From positions 29,768 through 93,767 of the forward strand of contig JAPLGM010000025.1 in NCBI GenBank assembly GCA_026390165.1: a DNA stretch of 64,000 bases. Reading direction: 5' to 3'. Both the position numbers and the translations under genes were made by a program. The notes under the pieces were generated by a model. The model made no database searches. It had not been told where the DNA came from and worked only from the letters and a program-made list of their open reading frames with translations. Below are positions 29,593 through 64,000 of the stretch, piece after piece (positions within the stretch are counted from its first letter, which is position 1; each line of letters begins with the position of its first letter). Origin of the DNA: Campylobacterales bacterium. Lineage in GTDB: Bacteria > Campylobacterota > Campylobacteria > Campylobacterales > Sulfurimonadaceae.

Positions 29593-31041
29593 CTAGGCGT
29601 GTAGGGCAATGTCGGCTTCTGATTCTCTATTTAGATTGTCCATAAGATCAAAGAGTTGTGAGCTAGCCTCTTCCATTGATTTGAAATTAGATAACACTTC
29701 CTCTTTATGTTCTATAGAACGGTCGCTATGCTCCACAAAATGTAAATTAGCGTACACTTTAGTGTGAATAGTTTCATGGGGCTGCGCCATGCTTCTATAA
29801 CTAGGCAGATGTGAGAAACGCTCTTTTCCTGCACCCGTATCATACCATCTACCTAAACGGCAATCGTGATGAGAGGAAAAGCTATTCTCAATCTGACCGT
29901 TAACGACGGCTTTATATGCATTGGATTTAAACATAATATGATCAATTTTTGCCAAAGTAATAAACGTTGTATTTTCAATCGCTGTTGTTTGTACGGCAGC
30001 TTTTTTAGCCTCTTCATTAAAGGTGTGTAAAGTATGACGAAATGTGTCAATGGATTGACTTGACTCGTTGGCAATTTCATCCATTGTTTCGGAATTGGAG
30101 TGAATCTCCGTCGTCTCTTGTTGAAGGGTTTGAATAGCAATAGCAATTTCACCTGTTGCTTTTCCTGTTCGTTCTGCAAGTTTTCGTACTTCATCGGCAA
30201 CGACGGCAAACCCTCGCCCATGCTCACCAGCGCGAGCCGCTTCAATGGCAGCATTGAGGGCGAGCAGATTGGTTTGATCGGCTATATCTTTGATTAGATT
30301 GACTACTGAGGTAATCTCATTTGTTTTTTCATTAAGGGAGTTGATTGCATTTGCGGATATTTGAACCAATTCGATTAAGCGGGTAAGTTTAAGGTTGATC
30401 TCTTCAAGTTCAGCAACCGATTCTGAGGAGCTCTCAGAGGTATTTTGACTAATTCTAGCAATTGAATGGAGCCGTTGAATGGTATTTTGAAGATCCCCTT
30501 GAATAACATCCAGCCCTCCGCCAACACCGGAGCCTATTTTACCGATAGCATTGTTGAGGATGGACTTTTGCATGTACAAATAACTGGTGTGCATGGATAA
30601 AATTGCTTTGTTAACAAATTCACTTGCCTCTTTATATTCCCCATGAAGCCCTTGGGTAAGAATGTGGCGATAGTATTGATTTTGGCTTGCGGCTTCAACG
30701 CTTGCACGTATTTCGCGGATAAAAATCTCGTTTTGATCAAGCATATTATTGGTGTTCCAGCAGAGATCATGAATCTCTCCTTGGTCTTCAATATGGGTTA
30801 TTCGTCCCTCCAAGCACCCCTTTTCAGCTGCTTTAACCACGGTAGCTACTTCGTGAATCATCTCTCTTGTTTTACGAATATGGAGAAAAATAAACCATGC
30901 TATGGCAAAGTTAGCAACATTAAGAAGTCGTATCCAACTCCAACCATCGAGTATGGTTTCAATAATTAAGGCAATCACAAACAATGTGATGGAGATAATA
31001 TTGGCGTATTGAACTTTAGAGAGTGAGGATAAATTCGTCAT
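29593..31041 (-). CDS. Methyl-accepting chemotaxis protein (CetA-like, with C-terminal CZB domain)
   Basis: Closely spaced N-terminal TMs, the [29 protein letters not shown] signature and a CZB motif (H..CRLGRWY...H). Start placed at ATG 31041. Confidence 0.9.
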
Positions 31042-41792: not shown

Positions 41793-42626
41793 ATGAATCA
41801 AGAATTGCATTATATTCAAGCGTTTTATGATCAGACGATCGCATTTTTGACCAATTACAGTTTCCAAATTATTGGTGCTTTGATTGTTGTCCTACTCGGA
41901 TGGTTTCTTTCAAAATATGTTTTCACTCTCTTAATTAAACTTTTTACTGAGCATGATTTTGATGTGACCCTTGGGAAGTTTATTGCTAATATTGTGAGAA
42001 TACTAATATTTGGAGCAATGTTTGTCATAGCCATCGGAAAACTTGGTATATCTATTGCTCCCTTCATTGCGGCAATCGGGGCTGTTTTTCTGACTGCCGG
42101 TTTGGCATTGCAGGGGAGTGTCGCCAATTTTGCTGCCGGAATTTCACTCATTATTACCCGACCGTTCAAAATCGGCGATACGATTTCAGTCAATAAAATT
42201 TTTGGTGTTGTAGAAGAGATCAAACTCGCCTACACGACCCTGCGAACCGAAGATGAAGAGATCATCACTGTTCCTAATAAAAATATGATTGGCGAGGTGA
42301 TTGTTAACTCTTTTAACTATCGTATTGTGGAGTCGAGTGTCGGTATCTCCTACCATGATGATGCGGAAAAAGCGATTGCCCTTATCAAAAAGACAATTGA
42401 CGGTTTTGAGAATCTTTCCAATGAAAACAAATCTATTGTTGGAATACAAAAATTCGGTGATAATGCGGTTGAGATAGGGATGCGCTACTGGGTGCCTACG
42501 AGAAATTTTTTCAGGATTCAGTATGAAGTGAATATGGCGGTCTATAAAGCACTCAATGACGCAAAAATAACGATCCCTTATCCTCAGAGAGAGGTTCATG
42601 TGTATGGGCAAAATATCCTAAAATAA
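41793..42626 (+). CDS. mscS: Small-conductance mechanosensitive channel
   Basis: GLALQGSVANFAAG, RPFKIGD and IPYPQREVH motifs. Confidence 0.93.
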   Translation: MNQELHYIQAFYDQTIAFLTNYSFQIIGALIVVLLGWFLSKYVFTLLIKLFTEHDFDVTLGKFIANIVRILIFGAMFVIAIGKLGISIAPFIAAIGAVFLTAGLALQGSVANFAAGISLIITRPFKIGDTISVNKIFGVVEEIKLAYTTLRTEDEEIITVPNKNMIGEVIVNSFNYRIVESSVGISYHDDAEKAIALIKKTIDGFENLSNENKSIVGIQKFGDNAVEIGMRYWVPTRNFFRIQYEVNMAVYKALNDAKITIPYPQREVHVYGQNILK

Positions 42627-42651
42627 AGGATAAAGAACCCAACGGGCACCC

Positions 42652-43245
42652 TTATGCCGAAAAGTTTTTCGATAGGGTTTCTTGCAGTGCGTGTAGGGCA
42701 TTATCGAGGCTAAAATCCGATTTGTATACATCATGGACGGAGTAACTTTTTAACGGCGTGGCTCCGCAAAATTGAAATGTTTTGTGTAAAGCGACATTCG
42801 CCTGATCGACGCTCATCCCTTCAAAAAAACCATTAGGATTGTTAAACTCACTCGTCGGGCAGTTGTAGGTGAAGCTGAGCATATACTCTTTCCCCTGCAT
42901 CAATCCTCCACTGCCGTATTTTTTGGATTCATCGTCACGGCTTCGTCCGTCGCTGACGTAGGTAACGGTGTTGTTTCCGCTTGAGAAAACTTCATCGACG
43001 TATTTTTTTGCTAGCCACGGAAGCCCCATCCAGTAGACGGGTGATTGGACAAAAATCGTATCCGCCCATGTAAGCTTTTCAAGCTCTTCGACGACATTGT
43101 AGCCCTCATCAATTGCGGTTTCGCGCACTTCGTAGCCGTTTGCCGAAAAAAACTTTTTGGCTTCGTTGAGGAGATCATGCGTCAGATTGCCGTTGGCAAA
43201 TCCATCGTATTTTTGGTGGAGGTTGAGGAGGAGGACGTGTTTCAT
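42652..43245 (-). CDS. mdaB: NAD(P)H:quinone oxidoreductase MdaB
   Basis: QSPVYWMGLPW and DGRSR...KKYGSGG motifs. Confidence 0.88.
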   Translation of the reverse strand: MKHVLLLNLHQKYDGFANGNLTHDLLNEAKKFFSANGYEVRETAIDEGYNVVEELEKLTWADTIFVQSPVYWMGLPWLAKKYVDEVFSSGNNTVTYVSDGRSRDDESKKYGSGGLMQGKEYMLSFTYNCPTSEFNNPNGFFEGMSVDQANVALHKTFQFCGATPLKSYSVHDVYKSDFSLDNALHALQETLSKNFSA

Positions 43246-43387
43246 GGTATTTTTCCTAGGATAAAGTAATATGTAGATTGTACTAGGATAGGGTTAATGG
43301 GAGATTCATAAAAAGGCACATTGTTTAGGTATTGAAATCCCTAAACAAATCTGATATAATGGGAATTAATTACCATAAGGGGCGAAA

Positions 43388-44599
43388 ATGTTCTCAAAAC
43401 TCTTAATTGAATCGAAAAAATTTATCCTTCGCAATGATCTCTCCTATCAAAGATACTTTATCAAAGAAAATAAAATCAAGCATCGCCTCACCATCATAGT
43501 GGGGCAAAGAGGGATAGGAAAAACTACCACCATCGCGCAGTATATGAAACAACACGACGCACTAAAATCACTCTATGTCAGTATGGACAGCTTTTTGGTG
43601 GGTGAGCTGTCGATGTATGAAATAGCCGAACGCTTTGAGATGGAGGGGGGTAAACTGCTGTGTTTTGATGAGATACACAAATACCAAAATTGGTCGCAAG
43701 AGTTAAAATCGATTTATGATACTTTTCCCTCATTGCAAATTATAGCCTCTGGAAGCTCGGCTTTGGAGATCAACAAGGGGAGTCATGACTTAAGCCGAAG
43801 AGCCAACACGCTCAAAATGGTGGGAATGAGTCTGAGAGAGTATATGGAGCTAACGCTAGCGATAGAACTCCCAAAATACACCCTCCAAGAGATACTACAA
43901 AACCACGAAAATATTGCTTTTGATATCGTGAGTAAATTAGAGAAGATTGATAAAAAGATACTTCCACTCTTTCAGAGATATTGCAAAGTCGGGTACTATC
44001 CGTACAGTTTAAGTATTCAAGACGATGAAATATTTTTTGATATGCTGAACCAAAATATTAATGTATCCATTTCAAGCGATTTGCTTTTTGTCTATCCCAG
44101 TCTCGATGGAAACAGCATCAAAAAGCTTAAACTTCTACTGAATATAATTATGGAAAGTGTGCCGTTTGTCCCTGTGATCGAAAAGCTAAAAAATTCACTC
44201 GATATTGGCGATGGCAGAACGTTGAAGGATTATTTTATCAAACTCGAAGATGCGGGCATTTTGCACCTGCTAATGAAGGCATCGGGTAAAGGGCTTCGAA
44301 AACTGGAAAAACCCGAAAAAATATATCTCAATAATACAAATCTGCTTTCCATAATTACCCCAGAAATAGGGACAGTGCGAGAAACATTTTTTCTAAATGT
44401 TCTAAGTACCCTGCACACTGTCACCTATCCGCAAAAAGGAGATTTTTTGGTGGACAATAGGTACCTTTTTGAAATCGGTGGAAAAAATAAAGGCTTTACA
44501 CAGATAAAAGACATAGAAAATAGTTTTGTGGCGAGCGACGACATTGAGATTGGATATAAAAATAAAATTCCCCTCTGGATATTTGGATTTTTGTATTAA
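43388..44599 (+). CDS. AAA+ ATPase with DUF4143 domain
   Basis: GQRGIGKTT Walker A, FDEIH Walker B, ASGSS, KIYLNN and DFLVD...EIGGK motifs. Confidence 0.88.
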   Translation: MFSKLLIESKKFILRNDLSYQRYFIKENKIKHRLTIIVGQRGIGKTTTIAQYMKQHDALKSLYVSMDSFLVGELSMYEIAERFEMEGGKLLCFDEIHKYQNWSQELKSIYDTFPSLQIIASGSSALEINKGSHDLSRRANTLKMVGMSLREYMELTLAIELPKYTLQEILQNHENIAFDIVSKLEKIDKKILPLFQRYCKVGYYPYSLSIQDDEIFFDMLNQNINVSISSDLLFVYPSLDGNSIKKLKLLLNIIMESVPFVPVIEKLKNSLDIGDGRTLKDYFIKLEDAGILHLLMKASGKGLRKLEKPEKIYLNNTNLLSIITPEIGTVRETFFLNVLSTLHTVTYPQKGDFLVDNRYLFEIGGKNKGFTQIKDIENSFVASDDIEIGYKNKIPLWIFGFLY

Positions 44600-49132: not shown

Positions 49133-49148
49133 AAGAACACAATATGCA
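49133..49148 (+). promoter_or_regulatory. Variant -24/-12 site upstream of rpoN
   Basis: AAGAAC-ACAAT-ATGCA. The -12 C is 39 nt upstream of the ATG. 14 of 16 positions are identical to the site at 58329-58344. Confidence 0.5.
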
Positions 49149-49185: not shown

Positions 49186-50451
49186 ATGCACACGTCTCTC
49201 TCCTATAAACAAAAACAACTCCCTAGATTATCGATGCAAACATGGCTTCCGCTCTTGCAATGTTCCCTCAATGATTTGGAGAAACATTTACAAGTCATTA
49301 GCAATGAAAACCCTTGTCTTGAAGTAAAATCAGGATTTGAGGAATCCAATGCACAAGCAGGTGGATCATCCGTATACGGTGCATTCCAAAATTATGTCTC
49401 TAACGCCTCTTCGGATCAAATTGAGTGGTTGAGTATCTCCTCAACCTCCTTGTATGAAAAATTGGATGAACAGATCGTCGCGCCTTTATTTCCCACCCCC
49501 ATATCTCAGAAAATTGCCCGTCAGATTATCTATTATATCAGTGATGAAGGGTATTTTGAAGGGAGTGTTGAAGAGATTGCCCAACAATGTGATACCGATG
49601 TCCAAACCGTGGAGCGGGTACGTCAGCGATTTTCTCATCTTGAGCCAGCAGGCGTTGGGGCGTGTGATTACAAAGAGTCCTTTTTGTTTCAGCTCAATGA
49701 TTACGAACTGGATGATGATTTGAGTATTTTGCTCTCAGCGATGATTTTACAGTTCGATAAGATGGAAAAATTTATCAAAAATCCCCGTTTCACAGATGCG
49801 AAACATGTGCTACAACATCTCAAAAATCCTCCTGCATTGGAGTATATGGAGCCAGAGGCACAAATAATTCCTGATCTTTTTGTAGAATTGACAGGATCAG
49901 AATTGGATATTCGAATCAATCATGCTTTTTACCCCGATTTAAAAGTTAATATGATTGATAAATACGACAATTTTGCCAAACAAAAGTTCAAAGAGGCACG
50001 AGAATTGGTGAAACTCATGGATCTTCGAAAAGCGACCCTCTATAATGTTGCTTTGGTCTTAATCGAAAAGCAGTACAGTTTCTTTATGGGAGGTGAGCTT
50101 AAACCGCTTCGACTTCAAGATGTTGCGGATGAGTTGGGCTTTAATGAATCGACAATTTCCAGAGCCATTTCGGATAAATATATGCAAACACAGCGGGGGC
50201 TCTATCCGTTCAAAGATTTTTTCTCCAATTCGATCGGTGAAGTATCGACCGCTGAGATCAAACACTTTTTGAAACGGCTAGTGTCGAGTGAAAACAAAGA
50301 GGATCCTTTTAGTGACAAAATACTTCATGAGATGATCGAAGAGCGTTTTGGGGTAACAATGGTACGTCGCCTTATCGCCAAATATCGGCAAGAACTTGAT
50401 ATTCCACCTTATAAAGAGCGGCTGTTTTTATACAAACTTGAGTTATTGTAA
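49186..50451 (+). CDS. rpoN: RNA polymerase sigma-54 factor (nif-island paralogue)
   Basis: Region I WLPLLQ, EPAGVGA, HTH ESTISR, PFSD, and an RpoN box reading VRRLIAKYRQ. Confidence 0.93.
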   Translation: MHTSLSYKQKQLPRLSMQTWLPLLQCSLNDLEKHLQVISNENPCLEVKSGFEESNAQAGGSSVYGAFQNYVSNASSDQIEWLSISSTSLYEKLDEQIVAPLFPTPISQKIARQIIYYISDEGYFEGSVEEIAQQCDTDVQTVERVRQRFSHLEPAGVGACDYKESFLFQLNDYELDDDLSILLSAMILQFDKMEKFIKNPRFTDAKHVLQHLKNPPALEYMEPEAQIIPDLFVELTGSELDIRINHAFYPDLKVNMIDKYDNFAKQKFKEARELVKLMDLRKATLYNVALVLIEKQYSFFMGGELKPLRLQDVADELGFNESTISRAISDKYMQTQRGLYPFKDFFSNSIGEVSTAEIKHFLKRLVSSENKEDPFSDKILHEMIEERFGVTMVRRLIAKYRQELDIPPYKERLFLYKLELL

Positions 50452-50461
50452 TTGATATCTC

Positions 50462-51373
50462 TTATACTTCGCAATAAATGGTATTTCTTCCCATCTCTTT
50501 TGCCTTGTAAAGCATTTCATCAACGAGTTTTAAAAGGTTTTCGCAGTCACTTTCGTTGTTTATTGTTGAAATTGCATATCCCACACTAACCGTCACATGG
50601 GCAGCTACTTTTGAATAATTATGGGGGATATTAAGATTCTCAACGCTGTCTTTGAGTTTTTGTGCCACATTTTTTGCCCCCTCTATGTCTATTTCAGGGA
50701 GAATGACAATAAACTCTTCTCCACCGTATCGACATACAAAGTCGCTATCTCTATTAAGGACGCTTTGAAGTTTATTGGCTACTTTTATGAGGCATTCGTC
50801 ACCGGCACCGTGCCCGTATCCGTCATTAAAGGCTTTAAAGTAGTCGATATCCATCATAACTAGTGCAAGGGGTTTAGCGTGTCTCATTGATCGGCCACAC
50901 TCGCTTTTAAATGTTTCGTCAAATCTTCGTCTATTGGCAATGCCGGTAAGGCCGTCTATCATGGCAAGTTTTTCGAGCATCTGTGTTTTTAGTTTTAGAT
51001 TTATATGGGTCTTCACCCTCGCTTTGATTAATAAGGGCTCATAGGGTTTGACGATATAGTCAACCGCACCAAGATTGAATCCTTGCATCTGATCGCTGAC
51101 TTCGTCTTTAGCACTGACAAAAATAACGGGAATCTCGGAAGTCGCCGAGTTTGATTTGAGTTTTTTACAGACTTCGTAGCCATCCATAACCGGCATCATA
51201 ATGTCCAAAAGTATCAGATCGGGCATTTCTATAGCGTTCGCTATCTGCAGCGCCTTTTCTCCACTCGTGGCAATCTTGATACTATAATCATTTCCCAGAA
51301 TTTCTGCCAGAAGCTGTATATTGGCCGTTGCGTCATCCACAATTAATATAGTAGGTTTTTTGCTAAACATCAC
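50462..51373 (-). CDS. Response regulator diguanylate cyclase (REC-GGDEF)
   Basis: REC domain (LIVDD, LLDIMMP), intact GGEEF and RxxD I-site (RDSD). Confidence 0.93.
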
Positions 51374-54300
51374 TTCGCCTTTAAATCAGTTGTTATTATA
51401 TCTATTGTGTCGATTGCTGCATCATAGTTCATGTTTCTTATTTGTGATACAAGTAAGGCTACGTGTACCTCATCCTTTACGCCATCTAAACACGCTTGCA
51501 GCTCATGCAACATACTCTCTGAAATAAACATATCCTGAGATGCGATCTCTCTTACCGTACTTAACATCTCAAGCGCCTCATCTGCTGTGCAAGCATTTAC
51601 GCTAGGATGGATTTCATCCATAAATATATTTTCAATATTAGTAAGGGTCTTATCGAGTTGATTAAAAAATTCATCAAGCGACTCACTCTTTTTTTGCTGA
51701 AGCTGATTTTCTAGTGTTTTTGTTGCTTCATAAAGCTCTAGTGCCCCTATATTTCCAGAAGCACCTTTTAGTGAATGTACCAATGCCAGCGCTTCATCAT
51801 ATCTATTATTATCTAAATAATGGCGCAGACTCTCTTTCGTATCTTTTTGGCTTTTTGCAAAATTAGTCAAGATATGATAGATCGCGTTACGATCCAGTCC
51901 TATTTGTGCAAACCTTTCATTGTCAAACCCTTTGAGATACATCCCTTTATCATTATTAGAGAGGGTATCTATATCTTCTTTATTTTGACGTTTTATCCAT
52001 TTTTGAAGGACAATGAAGAGCTCGTTAACGTCAATAGGTTTGGAGATATGGTCGTTCATGCCGGCAGCAAAAGTTTCTTCTCTGTCTTGTTTCATGGCAG
52101 CTGCTGTCATTGCCACAATAGGCAAAGAGTGGCATCCCGGTAAGGCTCTGATTTTAGCGGTGGCCTCAAAGCCGTCCATTATGGGCATCTGCAAATCCAT
52201 CAGTACGATGTCAAATTGCTCTTTAGAAGCTTTTTCAACGGCTTCTAGCCCATTTTCAGCAATTTCTATAGTAACGATTCCCAGCTTTTCAAGAAACCCC
52301 TTGGCGACTAGCTGGTTTGTCTGGTTATCTTCTACCAGAAGGACTTTTACTCCGCGAAACGCTTTTGAACCATTATTTAAGCTCTCACTCGTTTCCAAAG
52401 AGAAGGGTGTAAACCTAGTATCATCTTCCCCTTGAAGCGTCATGATTGTATCCATCAAATTTGATGGAGTTACCGGTTTTTCTAATATGGCATCGAGAGT
52501 GACGTGATGCGCAGACTCAAGAACTTCATCTTTTTTGTAGGTCGTAACCATAATTACGAGGGGGGAATGTTTCGCTTCATAACTCTTCATCTGTTCTTCG
52601 AGATGCGTTGCAAGTTCAATGCCGTCCATTCCGGGCATTTTCCAGTCTATTAGATACGCCTCATACGGTTTCCCCTCTTCAAGTGCCTTCAAAGAAAGGT
52701 TTAGAGCCTTTTCACCGGAGGTAGCCAATGTCACATCAAAAGACCATGACTCAAGAATTTTCTGCATTATCTCTAACGACGTTTCCTGATCATCGACCAC
52801 GAGGGTTTTCATCCCTCTGAGATTGTATATACTTCTCTGCTCTTCAGGTTTATTGGCAGGCAGTAGTGGAATTTTGAAGAAAAACGTGCTTCCTTTCCCC
52901 GGCTCGCTATCAATCCCTATTTCACCCCCCATCAAATCTATAATCTGTTTACTGATGGTAAGCCCAAGACCTGTTCCGCCAAACTTTCTCGTAGTAGACA
53001 TATCGGCCTGCGTAAATGCCTGAAACAATTTATCCGCTTGTTCTTTCGTCATACCGATACCGGTATCTTGTATCGTAAATAACAGTTCTTGATTCCCATC
53101 AGCATTAACTTGAGGGGCTATTTTTAGATGAATTTCCCCTTTGTAGGTAAACTTAACCGCATTGCCGACTAAATTATTGAGTATCTGAGATAATCTAAGA
53201 GGATCACCTCTTAGCCTATCAGGCACACCGTTTGCCATCTCAATAAAGATTTCTAACCCCTTCTCTTCGGCCTTTACGCTAAAAAGACCTGAGACGTTGC
53301 GCAGCAGTTTTTCAAGCGAATAGTCGATATTTTCAAGGCCGAGTTTGCCTGCCTCAATTTTAGAATAGTCCAGAATATCGTTAAGAATATTAAGGAGAGC
53401 TGCGGATGAATCCTGTACTTTTTGCAAATAGTTTCTTTGCATAGGGGTAAGCTCGGTATCGAGTACCAGCTTTGTCAGACCCAATACGGCATTCATAGGG
53501 GTTCGTATCTCATGGCTCATATTGGCGACAAAGTCGCTTTTTGCCTTGTTTGCCGATTCTGCTTGCTCTTTGGCGTGCATTAGTGCTTGTTCGGCTAGTC
53601 TTTGCTCGGTAATGTCTTGGATGGTACCAATAGAGCGGAGCGGTTTTTCGTTCTCGTCAAAAGTGGTTTCGCACTGTTCACGAACATATTTTATTCTACC
53701 GTCGTTCATCAGCAGCCTATGAACTATCTCATAACCGTTTTTCGTTTCCAATGAGTGTGTATACGCATCATTAACCCTGTCTCTATCATCCGGGTGAATA
53801 GCATGTAAAAACGCTTCATAGGATGCGTAAAATTTTTCTTTGTCAAGTTCAAATAGGTGAAAAATTTCATCGGACCAATCAAGCTTGTTGCTAATCAAAT
53901 CAAGAGACCAATTGCCGATTTTGGCTAGCGACTCGGCTTTTTTCAGATTATCGTTTATCTGAGCGGATTCTTCATAGCTGGCATCAAGCGCGGTATTGGC
54001 CTCTTCGAGTTCTCTTGCCTGCTTAGTTAGCAGCTCGTTAAGCCTGATTGCCTCGTCTTTTTGCGCTTCTGCCTTTTGCAGTTCAAGCTTGCTGAGTGCC
54101 GCGCGAAAATTAGCTTTTATTACACATAATAACAAATACGTTAAGAGAGTAAAAAACAAGATCGTTAGCGTGCTAGTTAACAAAGCGTTGTGAAACTCTT
54201 TTTTCATGATCGGCAGTGTCGCATCTTGGCTGTAAAAAGTGATGTATCCGATATAGTGTTTTGAGTAATCATAAAATGGGTTAAGGACTATCGCATAATC

Positions 54301-55188
54301 CTCATTGTTCACTTTTGCATAAAAACAGATAGCCTGTTTCTTAGATATTGACTCGTCAAATTCTTTCGGTTTTTGCTCAAAAATCTTTTGTAATAGCTCA
54401 AGTTCTTTATCCTGATAAATTAACGGGTTGTGATACAAGTTATTTGCAAGGAGGGAAGTCGCCATTTTTTTAGAATTAATATCGATCGGTATTTCAGGCG
54501 GGGATTCCAATGATAGGTACGTACTTGTTCTGAAGTTGTCTTGCAATGTTTTGTAGATTTGCGACTCATCAATACCCAGTTCAATACTCCCCAAGAAACG
54601 GTTCTGTTCGCGTATTGGAAAAACATATCGATAGGCATTAAAAAAACGGCCCAATTCAAAACCGTAATCACTTTTTTGATGTTCATGAACACTCTTTATG
54701 AGCTTTCTAAAAGATAGTACATTATCACCATACTCTTTTTGTTTTTGAAACCGGATAATAATATCTCCGCGTGTATTTTGAATCTGAAGTATCTTTAACG
54801 AGAGTGTCGTATTTGTTTTGTAGGTAGACTCAAATTTTGCTAATAGCAAATCGTGGGCTTTTTTGGTTTCATTTTTGTCATTTGAAATTTTGAGCGCATT
54901 TTTCATTGTTTCATCTGCGATTAATCTTTGAGCTTGAACTTCCGAAGCTGTTTTATACGCTTTGATAGTAGCGTTATATTCTTCATTCCATTGAGTTTTT
55001 AAGTTATTTAAGTAATCCTCAACATTCGCATCATATTTATTTTTTGTAATTGAGTAGGTACCGATTTCACCGATTATAAATACGAAAAGTATTAAAACCC
55101 GGAATGAAATTGTACTGGATACTAATAATGATACGAGCCCAGCTATTAATCTAGTATAAGATGATTTGATACGTGAGAATTTTGTCAT
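51370..55188 (-). CDS. Hybrid histidine kinase (Cache-PAS-HisKA-HATPase-REC-REC-Hpt)
   Basis: [24 protein letters not shown], two REC domains and HSLKG. Confidence 0.93.
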
Positions 55189-57765
55189 TTAATTCCCCTC
55201 TTTTAAAATTTTCATAATCGTATCTATGGTGTCAAGCGCCTTAGTATAGTCCATCTCTCTTATTTGCAATATGAGTCTGGCTATTTGTTTTTCATCCACG
55301 GTTCCATGCAGAGATTCTTGAACTTCATAGACGATATTCTCAGGGACAAACATGTCTTGTGATGTAATACTCTTTAATTGTTCAAGCACTTTTAAGGCAT
55401 CGTGTATGGTATAGTTTTTTGAGTTATCAGTTTTTTTGTTTATCGGTATAGTTTCAATATCGGTCAGTATTTCGGCAAGAGAGTGGTAAAACTCCTCAAG
55501 CGAATCGGTATGATTTGAGTTAAGCTCATTCTCCAGTTTTTTCGCCGCCTCATAAAGCTTTGTCGCCCCTATGTTTCCGCTAGAGCCTTTTATCGAGTGG
55601 ATTAGTGCGGATACTTTATCAAATCTACCATGCGCTAAATGGTCATTTAGCATCACTTTTGCATCTTTATAGCTTCGAACGAAACTGTAAAACATATCGA
55701 CAATGGCATCACGATCCAGCCCTATGTGTCTGAATGTAGCCAATCGTGTAGTGTCAAAGCCCTTGAAATCTATATTGTTTTCATCCGTATTTTTTTTTAC
55801 CTCAATAGAACAGGGTTGGCTATCGTGCGGCTTTATCCACTTTTGAAGGGTTGTAGCCAACTCTTCAAAATTTATAGGCTTAGAAATATGATCGTCCATA
55901 CCGGCTGAGAGGGAATCGGCTTTATCTTGTTTCATGGCGGATGCGGTCATCGCAACAATAGGTATATTTTTGCCGCAGGGTAAAGCTCTGATTTTGCGTG
56001 TCGCTTCAAATCCCCCCATAACGGGCATTTGCAAATCCATCAATACAATGTCGTATGTATTCTCGGTCACTTTGTTGAGCGCTTCAAGACCATTTTCAGC
56101 GATTTCTACAACACCCCCTAATTTATCCAGAAACCCTTTGGCGACCAATTGATTGGTCGGGTTGTCTTCTACCAAAAGAATCTTCGCCCCTTGGATCGCT
56201 TTCGATGCCTCGATTATAATTTTATCGCTATTCGAAGGAGTGGTTGCAAACGTACTGATTTCTCCCCCTTGAAGGGTCATAATCGTATCCATAAGGTTTG
56301 AAGGGGTGACGGGTTTTTCCAGTATTGCATCCAGTTTTATGTTCTTTGCAGTTTCTACGACTTTATCCTTGCTGCATGCGGTTACCATGATTACAAGAGG
56401 CGCGCGTCCACTCTTATGGAGATCGGTCTGCTCGTTAATAAGTTTAGCCAGTTCTACTCCATCCATCCCCGGCATTTTCCAGTCTATCAGATAGATTTCA
56501 AAAGGGTTACCTTGTTTCAATGCTTCCAACGAAAGGCTAAGTGCTTTTTCTCCGGAGTTTGCCAAGGTTACGTCAAAAAACCATGAACGGAGGATTTTTT
56601 CCATCACTTCGAGTGACGTTACCTGATCATCTACGACCAACGTCCTCATCCCTTTTAAATGTAAGGGGCTTCTTCCGTGTATGGATTCTTTGGCAGGTTG
56701 CAACGGTATCGTGAAGTAAAACGTACTCCCTCTACCAAATTCGCTTTCAACCCATATCTCTCCACCGATTAGCGCCACAAGCTGTTTGCTGATGGTCAGC
56801 CCAAGCCCGGTGCCTCCATATTTTCGGGTGGTGGAGGTATCGGCCTGGGTAAATGGCTGAAACAGATTGCCGGCTTGCTCTTTGGTCATACCGATACCGG
56901 TATCTTGTATGGTAAATAAAAGCATTTGTGTACTGTTTGGATCGATCAGGAGATCAATTTTGATATGAATTTCCCCTTTTTCGGTAAATTTTACGGCATT
57001 TCCGACTAGATTGTTAAGGATTTGAGATAGACGAAGTGGATCTCCCCTGAGCATAAGCGGCATACCCTCGGCAATATCAAAAAAGATCTCTATATCTTTC
57101 TCTTCGGCTCTTGCACTAAAGAGTCCGGATACATTGTGTAATACTGCCTCTAATGAGTAATCAACCTCTTCAAGACCTAGTTTGCCTGCTTCCATTTTGG
57201 AGTAGTCTAAAATATCATTGAGAATGTTTAAGAGGGCGGTTGATGAGTCTTGTACTTTTTGAAGATAGTTTCTTTGCATGGGGGTAAGTTCTGTATCCAG
57301 TACCAGCTTTGTGAGTCCCAAAACGGCATTCATCGGGGTTCGTATCTCGTGGCTCATATTGGCTACAAAGTCGCTTTTTGCCTTGTTTGCCGCTTCTGCA
57401 TGTTCTTTGGCACTCACTAATTCCCTATTGATTCGCTTTAAGTTTTCACTGACAACCCCAAAAGCGTACCCCAATACAATAAAAACCACTACCGAAAGAT
57501 ACGCACTGGGATTGTGTTTGACCAATTCAAAGGTTGGCGGTATGAAAAACCAAAAAACTATGATTGCACTGACAACCGATGAGATCATAGCTCCACGCAG
57601 ACCCCCAAGGCGTGCCATAAAAAATACGGTAGGATAAAACAAAAACCATACATACGGTTTAAACATAAACCATAGAGAAGTTTGCAGTGCAAGGGTGATA
57701 AAAGGGACAATAAATGGCAATAAATAGGTCAATATAAAATTTTTATCTATTCGACTAAATCCCAT
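55189..57765 (-). CDS. Hybrid histidine kinase (membrane sensor-HisKA-HATPase-REC-REC-Hpt)
   Basis: Four-TM DUF4118-like sensor and the same kinase core as its neighbour, with HSIKG. Start placed at ATG 57765 (RBS AAGGA). Confidence 0.92.
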
Positions 57766-57899
57766 TGACCTATCCTTTATTAAGTGGTGATACTTGAATG
57801 ATAACATATTTTTATGTGAGCTGAATTCAGTCCGAAGGATCTTTATACGAATACGCGATACCGTGCTTGGCACGGTATGAAAAAAAAGAGATAGTAGGA

Positions 57900-58295
57900 T
57901 TAGCTAGATGGCGTATCAATAGCCGTGAAGAAGGTATTGCTTTTGGTTGTGGTACGAGGCTCTGGTTGAGCAAGTGCCGTTTCTCCTTTTTCTCCTGTAC
58001 GGATACGTTCGACTTCAAGGACGGGGGTGACCCACATTTTTCCGGCACCGTGTCCTAGATCTTGGGTATGGGAACGGACACACTCCATAGCTGTTTTTTT
58101 ATGCGCTTCATCGGAGACGACGATAAGTAGCATCACTTTGGGAAATAGATCGGGAGCATTATTTTTTTCAGCAATCCCCAGTGACCCTTTTCCGATCACA
58201 TCCATGACGGTTACCCCTTCGATTAAATTGTCAAAAAGTTCTTTTAACACATCGTTGAGGCAGTGTTTGTTAAATACAGCGGTAATTTGGACCAT
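57900..58295 (-). CDS. P-II superfamily protein (non-canonical)
   Basis: [18 protein letters not shown] and RIRTGE motifs, with a short T-loop. Confidence 0.85.
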
Positions 58296-58328
58296 TTTGG
58301 ACCCCTAGTATTGGAATATTGTAGATAT

Positions 58329-58344
58329 TGCATATTGCGTTCTA
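58329..58344 (-). promoter_or_regulatory. Variant -24/-12 promoter of the P-II operon
   Basis: TAGAAC-GCAAT-ATGCA on the minus strand. The -12 C is 35 nt upstream of the ATG. Confidence 0.5.
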
Positions 58345-58354
58345 GCGAGTTGGT

Positions 58355-58370
58355 ATGACAAAAATGTCAT
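58355..58370. promoter_or_regulatory. Inverted repeat between divergent promoters
   Basis: ATGACA-AAAA-TGTCAT, centred between the two variant -24/-12 sites. Confidence 0.4.
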
Positions 58371-58378
58371 TCTCTAAC

Positions 58379-58394
58379 GAGAACATCTTTTGCA
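58379..58394 (+). promoter_or_regulatory. Variant -24/-12 promoter of nifU
   Basis: GAGAAC-ATCTT-TTGCA. The -12 C is 39 nt upstream of ATG 58432. Confidence 0.55.
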
Positions 58395-58431: not shown

Positions 58432-59409
58432 ATGGCACGAGATACATTAATCGGCGGAGCATTATGGGAGGAATATTCTCTTGAAGTACAACGACGGATG
58501 AATGATCCGATCAATATGGGGGAGATTACCCAAGAAGAGGCCGATGCGGCAGAGAAACAATTAATAATTGCCGATTTTGGCGCAGAGAGTTGTGGAGATG
58601 CCGTGCGTCTTTATTGGATGATCGATCCTAAAAATGACATGATCATTAAAAGCCGATTCAAAAGTTTCGGCTGCGGAACGGCGATTGCCAGCTCTGATAT
58701 GATGGCAGAATTGTGTATGGATAAAACGGTCGATGAGGCACTCAAAATCACCAATATCGATGTTGAAAAAGCACTCCGTGATGAGGAAGATATTCCCGCT
58801 GTTCCAGGGCAAAAAATGCACTGTTCGGTTATGGCGTACGACGTTATCAAAAAAGCGGCATCTATCTATAAAGGGGTAGATATGTCGGAGTTTGAGACAG
58901 AATTTATCGTCTGCGAATGTGCCCGCGTTAGCCTCGATACCCTCAAAGAGGTGATTCGTCTCAATAAGCTTGAAACGATTGAAGCCATCACCGATTACAC
59001 CAAAGCAGGTGGCTTTTGTAAATCGTGTATCAAACCCGGCGGTCATGAGAAAAAAGATGTTTACCTTATCGATATGTTGGCGGAAGTGACAGCGGAACTA
59101 CAAAAAGAGGCGATTAGCAAAAAGATCAAAGAGGCGAAAGGGGATGGAAATTTCAATGCAATGAGTCTCGTTCAAAAGCTCCGCAGTATCGAATCCATTC
59201 TCGAAGAGTACATTCGCCCGACCCTCAAAGCCGATCACGGTGATGTCGAAGTGATTGATCTTAAAGAGGTCGAAGATGGGCATGAACTTTATATCCAGTA
59301 TAAGGGGGAGTGTATGAGTTGTTCGATGAACACAACGACAACCTTAGCGGGGATGCAGGATATGCTGAACTTTAAACTCAAATCAAATCTTCGTGTGATG
59401 GTTGTCTAA
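58432..59409 (+). CDS. nifU: Three-domain Fe-S scaffold NifU
   Basis: SCGD, FGCG, KMHC, central CECA...CKSC and C-terminal Nfu CMSC. ATG 58432 follows RBS AAGGAG. Confidence 0.93.
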   Translation: MARDTLIGGALWEEYSLEVQRRMNDPINMGEITQEEADAAEKQLIIADFGAESCGDAVRLYWMIDPKNDMIIKSRFKSFGCGTAIASSDMMAELCMDKTVDEALKITNIDVEKALRDEEDIPAVPGQKMHCSVMAYDVIKKAASIYKGVDMSEFETEFIVCECARVSLDTLKEVIRLNKLETIEAITDYTKAGGFCKSCIKPGGHEKKDVYLIDMLAEVTAELQKEAISKKIKEAKGDGNFNAMSLVQKLRSIESILEEYIRPTLKADHGDVEVIDLKEVEDGHELYIQYKGECMSCSMNTTTTLAGMQDMLNFKLKSNLRVMVV

Positions 59410-62768: not shown

Positions 62769-64000
62769 ATGAAGAATATGACTATTAAAGCAAAGCTTTA
62801 TTTGGTACCCATAGCATTGTTGTGTGTTTTTATCATTACGTATCTTATTTATTCCAATAAACATGCATCGGCCGAAGCTGCCATGGAACGATCTATTGAA
62901 GCCAAAGATGCAGTCAATGAATTTTTAAATACGCGGATATCAGTGTATCAATTCTTAAAAGAACCTTCGGAAGAAACTTTTTCAAAAGTTAATACCAAAC
63001 TTGAGAATAACCATAAATCAATAACAGAATTAAAAGAAAAATTGTCGTTAAAAGAAAATAAAGAGAGATGTGATGTAGCGTTATCACTTCTTCATGAGTA
63101 TAAAGCAGAGTTTGATTCTAAATCTAAAGAGATAATAGAATCCGATATTTCAAATCGAAATAGTATTGATTTAAGTAAATTTGTAGCTATTGGTACAGAG
63201 CTTCAGAAGAGCTTGGAAAAAACATCTCTCAGTGCGGTTGAATTGAGTAAAGATTCTGTTAGTTTCATCAGCACTTTACTCACTTTTTGTTTTGTATTTG
63301 CATTAGTCTTAGTCTTCATCATTAATCTTTTAGTTACTCAAGAAATTACTGGATCAATAGCATTATTGCAAACTAAAATCAAAGATTTTGTGGAGACTAA
63401 AAATTTAAAAATACGCCTATCCTACGATCGGAATGATGAAATTAAGGTTATTATCACTAGCTTTAATATCTTACTGGAAACACTGGAGTATACAATAGAG
63501 GAATCGAAAAATTCTGCTAATGAGAATGCTTCTGTTTCAAGTGAGCTTAGAACGACTAGTATACAAATTGGTCATAACGCTGAGAATACTATGGGGATTG
63601 TTGAAGAAACAATCAATGAAATATATCAAATGAAAGAATTTATTGAATCAAGCGTAGTGCTTTCAGAGCAAACAAGAGAAAGCATTCACGTTGCAGGCGA
63701 AAAACTTCATGAGATGGTAAGTGATATGCAGCAATTAAAATCAGATGTTACCAATGCCAGTGAGCTTGAGGCTGGTCTTGCAAGTAAATTAGAACATATG
63801 AGTAGAGAAGCTACTCAAGTAAAACAAATTTTAGTTGTTATTAGTGATATTGCAGATCAAACAAATCTTTTAGCGCTTAATGCTGCAATTGAAGCTGCCC
63901 GTGCCGGTGAACATGGCAGAGGATTTGCTGTTGTAGCGGATGAAGTTAGAAAATTAGCAGAACGAACACAAAAAAGTTTAACTGAAATCAATGCAACAAT
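62769..64000 (+). CDS. Methyl-accepting chemotaxis protein (3' truncated by window edge)
   Basis: Not in the ORF track because it has no stop. Read by hand from ATG 62769 after AAGGA: two TMs, HAMP domain and [41 protein letters not shown]. Confidence 0.92.

Follow-up and report, generated by a model that had tools for sequence, protein, structure and literature searches.

The stretch of DNA analyzed here (64,000 nucleotides; hereafter, the window) comes from a Campylobacterales bacterium of the family Sulfurimonadaceae and corresponds to positions 29,768 to 93,767 of the forward strand of contig JAPLGM010000025.1 (GenBank assembly GCA_026390165.1). It contains genes of a nitrogen fixation (nif) island. 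Between the sigma-54 gene rpoN of the island and a gene for a P-II-like protein, the window carries a block of three genes, which encode two hybrid kinases (HK1 and HK2) and a REC-GGDEF diguanylate cyclase (DGC) for the second messenger cyclic di-GMP (c-di-GMP). It is probable that HK1-HK2-DGC was inserted recently into the junction between rpoN and the P-II-like gene, in this population only, and that it is transcribed from a promoter of its own. The variant -24/-12 site found upstream is real and conserved, and it belongs to the P-II-like gene.

The inserted block is everything between the stop codon of rpoN and that of the P-II-like gene (50452-57899, minus strand, 7.4 kb). An earlier note on this DNA had described a minus-strand run of a P-II-like gene, two kinase genes, and a REC-GGDEF gene, and this order is seen in both the open reading frame (ORF) listing and the Pfam matches. 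The P-II-like gene (131 aa) is located at 57900-58295, HK1 (858 aa) at 55189-57765, HK2 (1272 aa) at 51370-55188, and DGC at 50462-51373, the last encoding 303 aa from a GTG codon or 302 aa from an ATG codon at 51370. On the other side, rpoN (421 aa, 49186-50451, plus strand) converges on the block. The stop codons of rpoN and DGC are 10 nt apart with no hairpin between them, and transcripts could run antisense into the opposite gene. At 50440-50470, the insertion removed the hairpin which in relatives serves both rpoN and the P-II-like gene.

The insertion is indicated by the comparison of P-II-like loci. Near-identical P-II-like proteins carry names that point to Sulfuricurvum as the genus. 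Twenty loci from other species of this genus were compared, and the proteins of the window were mapped onto each. The P-II-like gene is 81-89% identical in these loci, and in all 20 it is transcribed away from nifU and the following genes for an aldo-keto reductase and an SdhA-like flavoprotein, and HK1, HK2, and DGC are absent from the P-II-like junction. Convergent rpoN is found directly after the P-II-like gene, 6-270 nt away, in eight loci (L013, L017, L018, L020, L021, L024, L026, and L027). In the remaining loci, the P-II-like gene is followed by PAP2, by a type I restriction-modification (R-M) system and RelE, by a methyl-accepting chemotaxis protein (MCP), by aspS-adk, or by NfeD-Band7. 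The closest relative is a metagenomic contig (L043), whose P-II-like protein is 95% identical and whose RpoN C-terminus is 92% identical to that of the window. The kinase block is absent in L043: the stop codons of rpoN and the P-II-like gene are 11 nt apart and share one hairpin. The same layout of rpoN, P-II-like gene, and nifU is also present in a more distant member of Campylobacterales (L061), where the P-II-like protein is 56% identical and rpoN is 11 nt away. The kinase block is likewise absent from the P-II-like junction in two other genera. That the block forms a conserved circuit coupling N2 fixation to a sessile lifestyle, the coupling proposed in the earlier note, is thus contradicted by synteny, as the kinases never follow the P-II-like gene in the 20 loci of the genus, in L043, or in the other genera.

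The junction between rpoN and the P-II-like gene is a recurrent hot spot of insertion and rearrangement in Sulfuricurvum and Sulfurimonas, because other genomes carry R-M, MCP, PAP2, or reverse transcriptase genes there. In Sulfurimonas (L059), it is occupied by an insert with DUF1016, reverse transcriptase, and RhuM genes. This insert (L059/L060, 8595-13347) encodes DUF1016/YhcG, a reverse transcriptase of 1029 aa (RVT_1), a small ORF, and a RhuM-like protein, and it resembles a defence or mobile island.

The relatives of the inserted genes are found outside nif islands. No ortholog of HK2 was found in 66 genomes of the genus, where the best match (44% identity) extends over the transmitter alone. 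The full-length HK2 is a singleton in a library of 5.8 billion proteins, and its sensor part shows at best 50% identity. The nearest relatives of DGC are 72%, 69%, and 58% identical and are encoded behind hybrid kinases on contigs showing no nif genes; the contigs of the 72% and 69% relatives each have one hybrid kinase upstream. Related cassettes without nif genes are seen in L047 (kinase 63% and DGC 72% identical), L055, and L057 (two kinases and DGC beside icd, the isocitrate dehydrogenase gene). The GC content of the block is 40.3% against 41.9% for the window. A foreign composition was considered and rejected, as this value is indistinguishable from the surroundings. Neither terminal inverted or direct repeats nor a transposase was found at the ends of the block, and the only repeats are internal ones from the tandem duplication. 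An imperfect inverted match of 6-7 nt at the two ends (GATATCTC and GAGATAG) was judged to be due to chance.

The upstream region was examined with an alignment of the intergenic region between nifU and the P-II-like gene from 21 genomes. The divergence from nifU and the variant -24/-12 site, both described earlier, are confirmed. The site is GAACGCAATATGCA, at 58342-58329 on the minus strand. Its pattern, aGAA(C/T)-N5-TATGCA, is conserved in 20 of the 21 genus loci. It is mirrored by the nif-type promoter of nifU, GAACATCTTTTGCA (58381-58394, plus strand), with the pattern AGAAC-N5-TTGCA. In the window, the motif GNAC-N6-TGCA precedes nifE, nifN, rpoN, the P-II-like gene, and nifU, and there is one extra match inside the 3' end of nifN (45887). 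No GNAC-N6-TGCA motif is present in 50452-57899. The promoter of rpoN in the nif island, GAACACAATATGCA (49135-49148, plus strand), shares 13 of its 14 positions with that of the P-II-like gene, and both have ATGCA, not TTGCA, at -12. A hairpin 3' of the P-II-like stop codon is seen in about 18 of the 21 loci, regardless of the downstream genes. The ancestral unit would have been the P-II-like gene transcribed from a sigma-54 promoter back to back with that of nifU and ending in a hairpin, with rpoN converging on it from 11-90 nt away.

Between the two divergent promoters lies ATGACATTTTTGTCAT (58355-58370), a perfect palindrome of 16 bp, which is located about 10 nt upstream of both -24 elements. 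Its core gACAtTTTTGTc is present in all 21 loci. The palindrome is too close to the promoters for a classical enhancer and may be the site of a repressor or a dedicated regulator. It was rejected as a general upstream element of nif genes, as within the window it is found only at the nifU/P-II-like pair. In many relatives, the leader of the P-II-like gene, from promoter to ATG, contains a structured insert of about 90-110 nt, of two types. The first type (L013, L015, L017, and L021-L024) has GC-rich hairpins, CTGCCCCnnnnGGGGC...GGGACGCGTTCC, and the second type (L019, L025, and L027-L032) has a TATAAT box. The leader is free of such inserts in the window and in five relatives. No family was matched in an Rfam scan of the leader inserts from five related loci.

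The P-II-like gene and HK1 are separated by a spacer of 134 nt (57766-57899, minus strand), which contains a T8 run, a hairpin with a stem of 9 bp (57878-57858), an extended -10-like element TGTTATCAT (57806-57798), and an AAGGA ribosome-binding site (RBS). The longest ORF of HK1 (55189-57873, minus strand) reaches a GTG codon at 57873. The start of HK1 is most likely the ATG codon at 57765, and not this GTG as taken earlier, because the GTG is located within the hairpin and the ATG is preceded by the AAGGA-N6 RBS. This RBS is of the kind serving the P-II-like gene in relatives. A start at 57765 widens the distance from the P-II-like gene to HK1 from 26 to 134 nt. A single nif-regulated operon, as proposed in the earlier note, does not fit this arrangement: there are two units of different age, separated by a spacer with a hairpin and an RBS, and no nif-type motif is found in the block. 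We infer a promoter of HK1-HK2-DGC in the spacer only from the resemblance of TGTTATCAT to the consensus. The operon is most likely driven mainly from this putative promoter, and read-through from the P-II-like promoter would be a possible secondary input. The spacer also contains GGACTGAATTCAGC (57833-57820), which was considered as a canonical GG-N10-GC site and rejected: both dinucleotides are there, but the TGC core at -12 is missing, and about 0.5 matches are expected by chance. The earlier note had named a strain-specific insertion with its own sigma-70 promoter as the outcome that would refute its proposal. The insertion was found outright, and the promoter is suggested only.

Several observations weigh against an insertion with a promoter of its own. 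A scan with the sigma-70 consensus gave 25 matches against 20.2 +/- 4.2 in shuffled sequences, no enrichment, and did not flag TGTTATCAT in the spacer. The hairpin in the spacer has no downstream U-tract, so that termination at it may fail and transcription from the nif promoter could continue into HK1. The block has the orientation of the P-II-like gene and adjoins the stop codon of that gene, a layout that capture of the nif promoter would also produce. In ten relatives, a CBS-GGDEF gene is located between nifT and nifA, which keeps a link of nif and c-di-GMP in the genus alive, at low probability.

It is conceivable that read-through brought the cassette, after its insertion, under the NifA/sigma-54-dependent promoter of the P-II-like gene. 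In this strain only, induction of nif genes would then raise the kinases, the cyclase, and the capacity for c-di-GMP synthesis. We regard this as rather unlikely. Besides the orientation of the cassette and the absence of the U-tract, it is favoured by the fact that 58329-58342 is the only nif-type promoter able to serve the block, by the recurrence of GGDEF genes in nif islands of relatives, and by known connections of RpoN, P-II, c-di-GMP, and biofilm formation in other nitrogen-fixing species (PMC8249394, PMC7646526). However, the spacer of 134 nt contains a stable hairpin, a separate RBS, and a -10-like element, and the arrangement is conserved nowhere else among the loci compared. In relatives, the CBS-GGDEF genes are preceded by promoters of the TGnTATAAT type, with no nif-type motif. 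Furthermore, GGDEF genes are so frequent in this genome that adjacency weighs little: its 2.64 Mb contain about 50 GGDEF loci as well as 34 kinase cores, and the chance of at least one GGDEF gene in the nif region of about 66 kb is about 0.7. Two other pairs of a hybrid kinase and a REC-GGDEF protein are present in the genome (C8:119-3287 and C22:106418-109511), and their cyclases are 51-52% identical to DGC of the window.

Two comparisons from other diazotrophs share the concept of linking N2 fixation with sigma-54 or P-II and with c-di-GMP or biofilm. In Pseudomonas stutzeri A1501, nitrogen-fixing biofilm is tied to RpoN, which activates pslA and nifA, while Rsm controls sadC (PMC8249394). 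In Azospirillum brasilense, P-II affects the levels of c-di-GMP (PMC7646526). In these two species, the link is regulatory, and not one made by a DGC operon within the nif cluster. Here, the linkage is physical and strain-specific.

A broader version of the same idea is that Sulfuricurvum repeatedly recruits signalling genes for the control of behaviour into the nif island, which would tie N2 fixation to a life that is attached or avoids oxygen, in this strain through c-di-GMP control by read-through. This idea arises because about half of the related nif islands carry CBS-GGDEF near nifA, and because MCP and dCache-CheW genes recur between nifT and nifA. We consider it improbable. A nif-type promoter for the CBS-GGDEF genes of relatives was sought and rejected, as the genes have TGnTATAAT-like promoters without any nif-type motif. 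The junction of nifT and convergent nifA (62769-64000 of the window and beyond, C1:92536-95748) recurrently contains a signalling gene. It is an MCP gene in this genome and a gene for a dCache-CheW protein in a more distant relative, and there is nothing in five relatives. The observation concerns L014, L015, L019, L025, L027-L029, L031, L032, L044, and L061; L014 has two copies of CBS-GGDEF.

The block itself appears to be an intact signalling cassette. HK1 consists of a DUF4118 membrane sensor, HisKA, HATPase_c, two REC domains, and Hpt. HK2 consists of a periplasmic dCache_3 domain between two transmembrane segments, PAS_3, HisKA, HATPase_c, two REC domains, and Hpt. The earlier note has to be corrected in that each kinase has two receiver domains. 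As it had claimed, both kinases end in Hpt domains, with the Hpt His and HxxKG readable in each. The H-box SHEIRTPMN and the Asp of both receivers are also kept in both proteins. Thus, by Pfam and motif reading, both kinases have all the marks of tripartite hybrid kinases (the His of HisKA, HATPase_c, the receiver Asp, and a C-terminal Hpt with HxxKG). DGC is composed of Response_reg (E = 7e-26) and GGDEF (E = 2e-51, full profile length). Its receiver has DD (ILIVDD), D (LLDIMMP), S (FVSAK), and K (IVKP), and the GGEEF and I-site reported earlier are intact, as RYGGEEF with RDSD (RxxD) five residues upstream. Each protein of the block looks functional from these motifs.

HK1 and HK2 are tandem paralogs with 62% amino acid identity over about 720 residues, and their DNA contains repeats 71-76% identical to each other and spaced by 3837 nt. 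They share the core of transmitter, REC, REC, and Hpt, and differ in their sensors. This pattern indicates that they arose as tandem duplicates which kept the core and carry different sensors. The junction of HK1 and HK2 reads TAA-ATG, in agreement with the gap of 0 nt noted before. The junction of HK2 and DGC reads GTGATG; the overlap of 4 nt noted before holds for the GTG start, and that from the ATG start used by public gene calls is 1 nt. HK1, HK2, and DGC constitute one operon with translational coupling.

A phosphorelay with two inputs, from kinase to Hpt to REC-GGDEF, was proposed in the earlier note, and it is the natural reading of three tightly coupled genes with these domains, motifs, and gene order. 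HK1 would sense via the membrane-embedded DUF4118 domain, and HK2 via the periplasmic dCache_3 domain plus the cytoplasmic PAS domain. Each kinase would autophosphorylate and then pass the phosphoryl group from His to Asp to the His of Hpt. Either Hpt would phosphorylate the receiver of the REC-GGDEF protein, and c-di-GMP would be made under feedback through the I-site. We infer the direction of phosphotransfer from the sequence.

REC-GGDEF proteins of the WspR/PleD type make c-di-GMP when phosphorylated. DGC is similar to these proteins in having a receiver with the phospho-acceptor Asp followed by a GGDEF domain with GGEEF and the RxxD I-site. It has a single receiver as in WspR, whereas PleD has two. 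Its score against the PleD equivalog (NCBIfam NF007135) is 281 bits, below the cut-off of 474, and it is thus not an ortholog of PleD. DGC adjoins hybrid kinases bearing Hpt, while WspR is fed by the Che-like Wsp system and PleD by DivJ/PleC. HK1 and HK2 resemble BarA/GacS, TorS, and ArcB, with the HisKA-HATPase core, receiver, and C-terminal Hpt in one polypeptide. Their best NCBIfam match is BarA, with 496 and 494 bits, respectively, but the cut-off of the BarA equivalog (NF008318) is 890, and thus they are not orthologs of BarA. Unlike kinases of the BarA kind, they have two receivers each, and their sensors are DUF4118 in HK1 and dCache_3 plus PAS in HK2. Their likely output is DGC, whereas the output of the BarA kind is a DNA-binding regulator. 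The presence of two paralogous kinases with different sensors beside one receiver protein is reminiscent of multi-kinase networks and suggests integration of two signals; unlike in established networks, the convergence on one DGC is deduced from gene order alone. HK1-HK2-DGC is probably an ordinary multi-kinase phosphorelay cassette for c-di-GMP.

In contrast to HK1-HK2-DGC, the P-II-like gene is conserved with the nif island and has a nif-type promoter upstream; the block shows neither. The protein matches Pfam P-II (PF00543) with 66 bits (cut-off 25), and its best match in PDB is a P-II protein (E = 2.6e-10). In the alignment of P-II-like proteins (A1), G35, G37, K58, G87, G89, K90, and RIRTGE (R101-E106) are invariant. 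Among them are the nucleotide-binding residues of the family (G37, K58, the GxxGxGK B-loop, and the C-terminal RxR). These profile and motif matches place the protein firmly in the P-II family. Within the genus, its sequence is 81-95% identical, whereas the homologs of Sulfurimonas and further members of Campylobacterales are 54-60% identical. The gene is always divergent from nifU. Compared with GlnB/GlnK, the T-loop is shorter by 5 residues, R38, Q39, and Tyr51 are missing, and there is a C-terminal extension of 23 residues ending in the conserved (F/Y)xTxxDTP(A/S)S. The scores against the GlnB and GlnK equivalogs are 36 and 29 bits, far from the cut-offs of 202 and 181, respectively. The P-II-like gene is located inside the nif cluster, as nifI genes are, but it is a single gene divergent from nifU, whereas NifI1 and NifI2 are encoded by a pair of genes between nifH and nifD. 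Such P-II-like proteins, 131-133 aa in length, constitute a family of Campylobacterota nif islands, in a group without NifL and NifI.

The distribution of the P-II-like gene follows that of nifH. It is carried by 42 of the 46 nifH-positive genomes of the genus and by 9 of the 20 nifH-negative ones (Fisher p = 1e-4). Several of these nine clearly have fragments of the nif island. The conserved target of the P-II-like protein would more likely be NifA, which here has a GAF domain and no NifL, or nitrogenase.

It was also proposed that the P-II-like protein is a dedicated partner gating HK1 or HK2, through which nitrogen or energy status controls the phosphorelay. The genes for the P-II-like protein and the kinases are adjacent, P-II proteins act by protein-protein contact, and a connection between P-II and c-di-GMP has been reported in A. 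brasilense (PMC7646526). Nevertheless, dozens of genomes without the kinases have conserved the P-II-like protein, whose occurrence tracks nifH instead, and the kinases arrived later than the P-II-like gene. Because the protein is conserved without the kinases, gating is not its ancestral role, and we consider it very unlikely as its function here. That the juxtaposition of HK1-HK2-DGC and nif genes is a chimera of assembly or binning can practically be dismissed: the genome is a draft in 32 contigs, but the order HK1-HK2-DGC-rpoN-fdx-nifZ came out of separate assemblies of at least six runs from one study, an identical DGC is present on 18 contigs, and the 139-kb contig of the window is continuous across both junctions of the block.

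The surroundings of the block are occupied by nif genes. On the side of rpoN, there are nifE, followed by nifN-nifX-DUF269-flavodoxin-nifW-nifZ, two ferredoxin genes, and rpoN. A second rpoN, 40% identical to that of the nif island, is present on contig C5. On the other side, nifU (58432-59409, plus strand; Pfam NifU_N, Fer2_BFD, and NifU) starts with ATG at 58432, which corrects the earlier note. It is the first gene of a conserved unit of nifU, aldo-keto reductase, SdhA-like flavoprotein, and nifT, and this synteny is seen in all relatives. nifA is located just outside the window, and nifH is 42 kb further on the same contig. Between nifE and nifN, at 41793-44599, there are genes for an MscS channel, a protein of flavodoxin_2 fold (NAD(P)H dehydrogenase-like) on the opposite strand, and an AAA_14 ATPase. 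The interruption appears to be another sign of a mosaic nif island with many insertions.

These results show how adjacency of genes in a metabolic island can mislead. What looked like a circuit from nif to c-di-GMP is an insertion that this population alone carries at a hot spot, and the genome itself has about 50 GGDEF genes. A more interesting by-product is the conserved unit, specific to nif islands of Campylobacterota, in which the promoters of nifU and the P-II-like gene are arranged around a conserved palindrome. The P-II-like protein is a good candidate for a regulator of NifA or nitrogenase. The insertion also offers a natural experiment: a comparison of this strain with near relatives without the insert would address whether promoter capture can rewire the control of lifestyle to nitrogen fixation.

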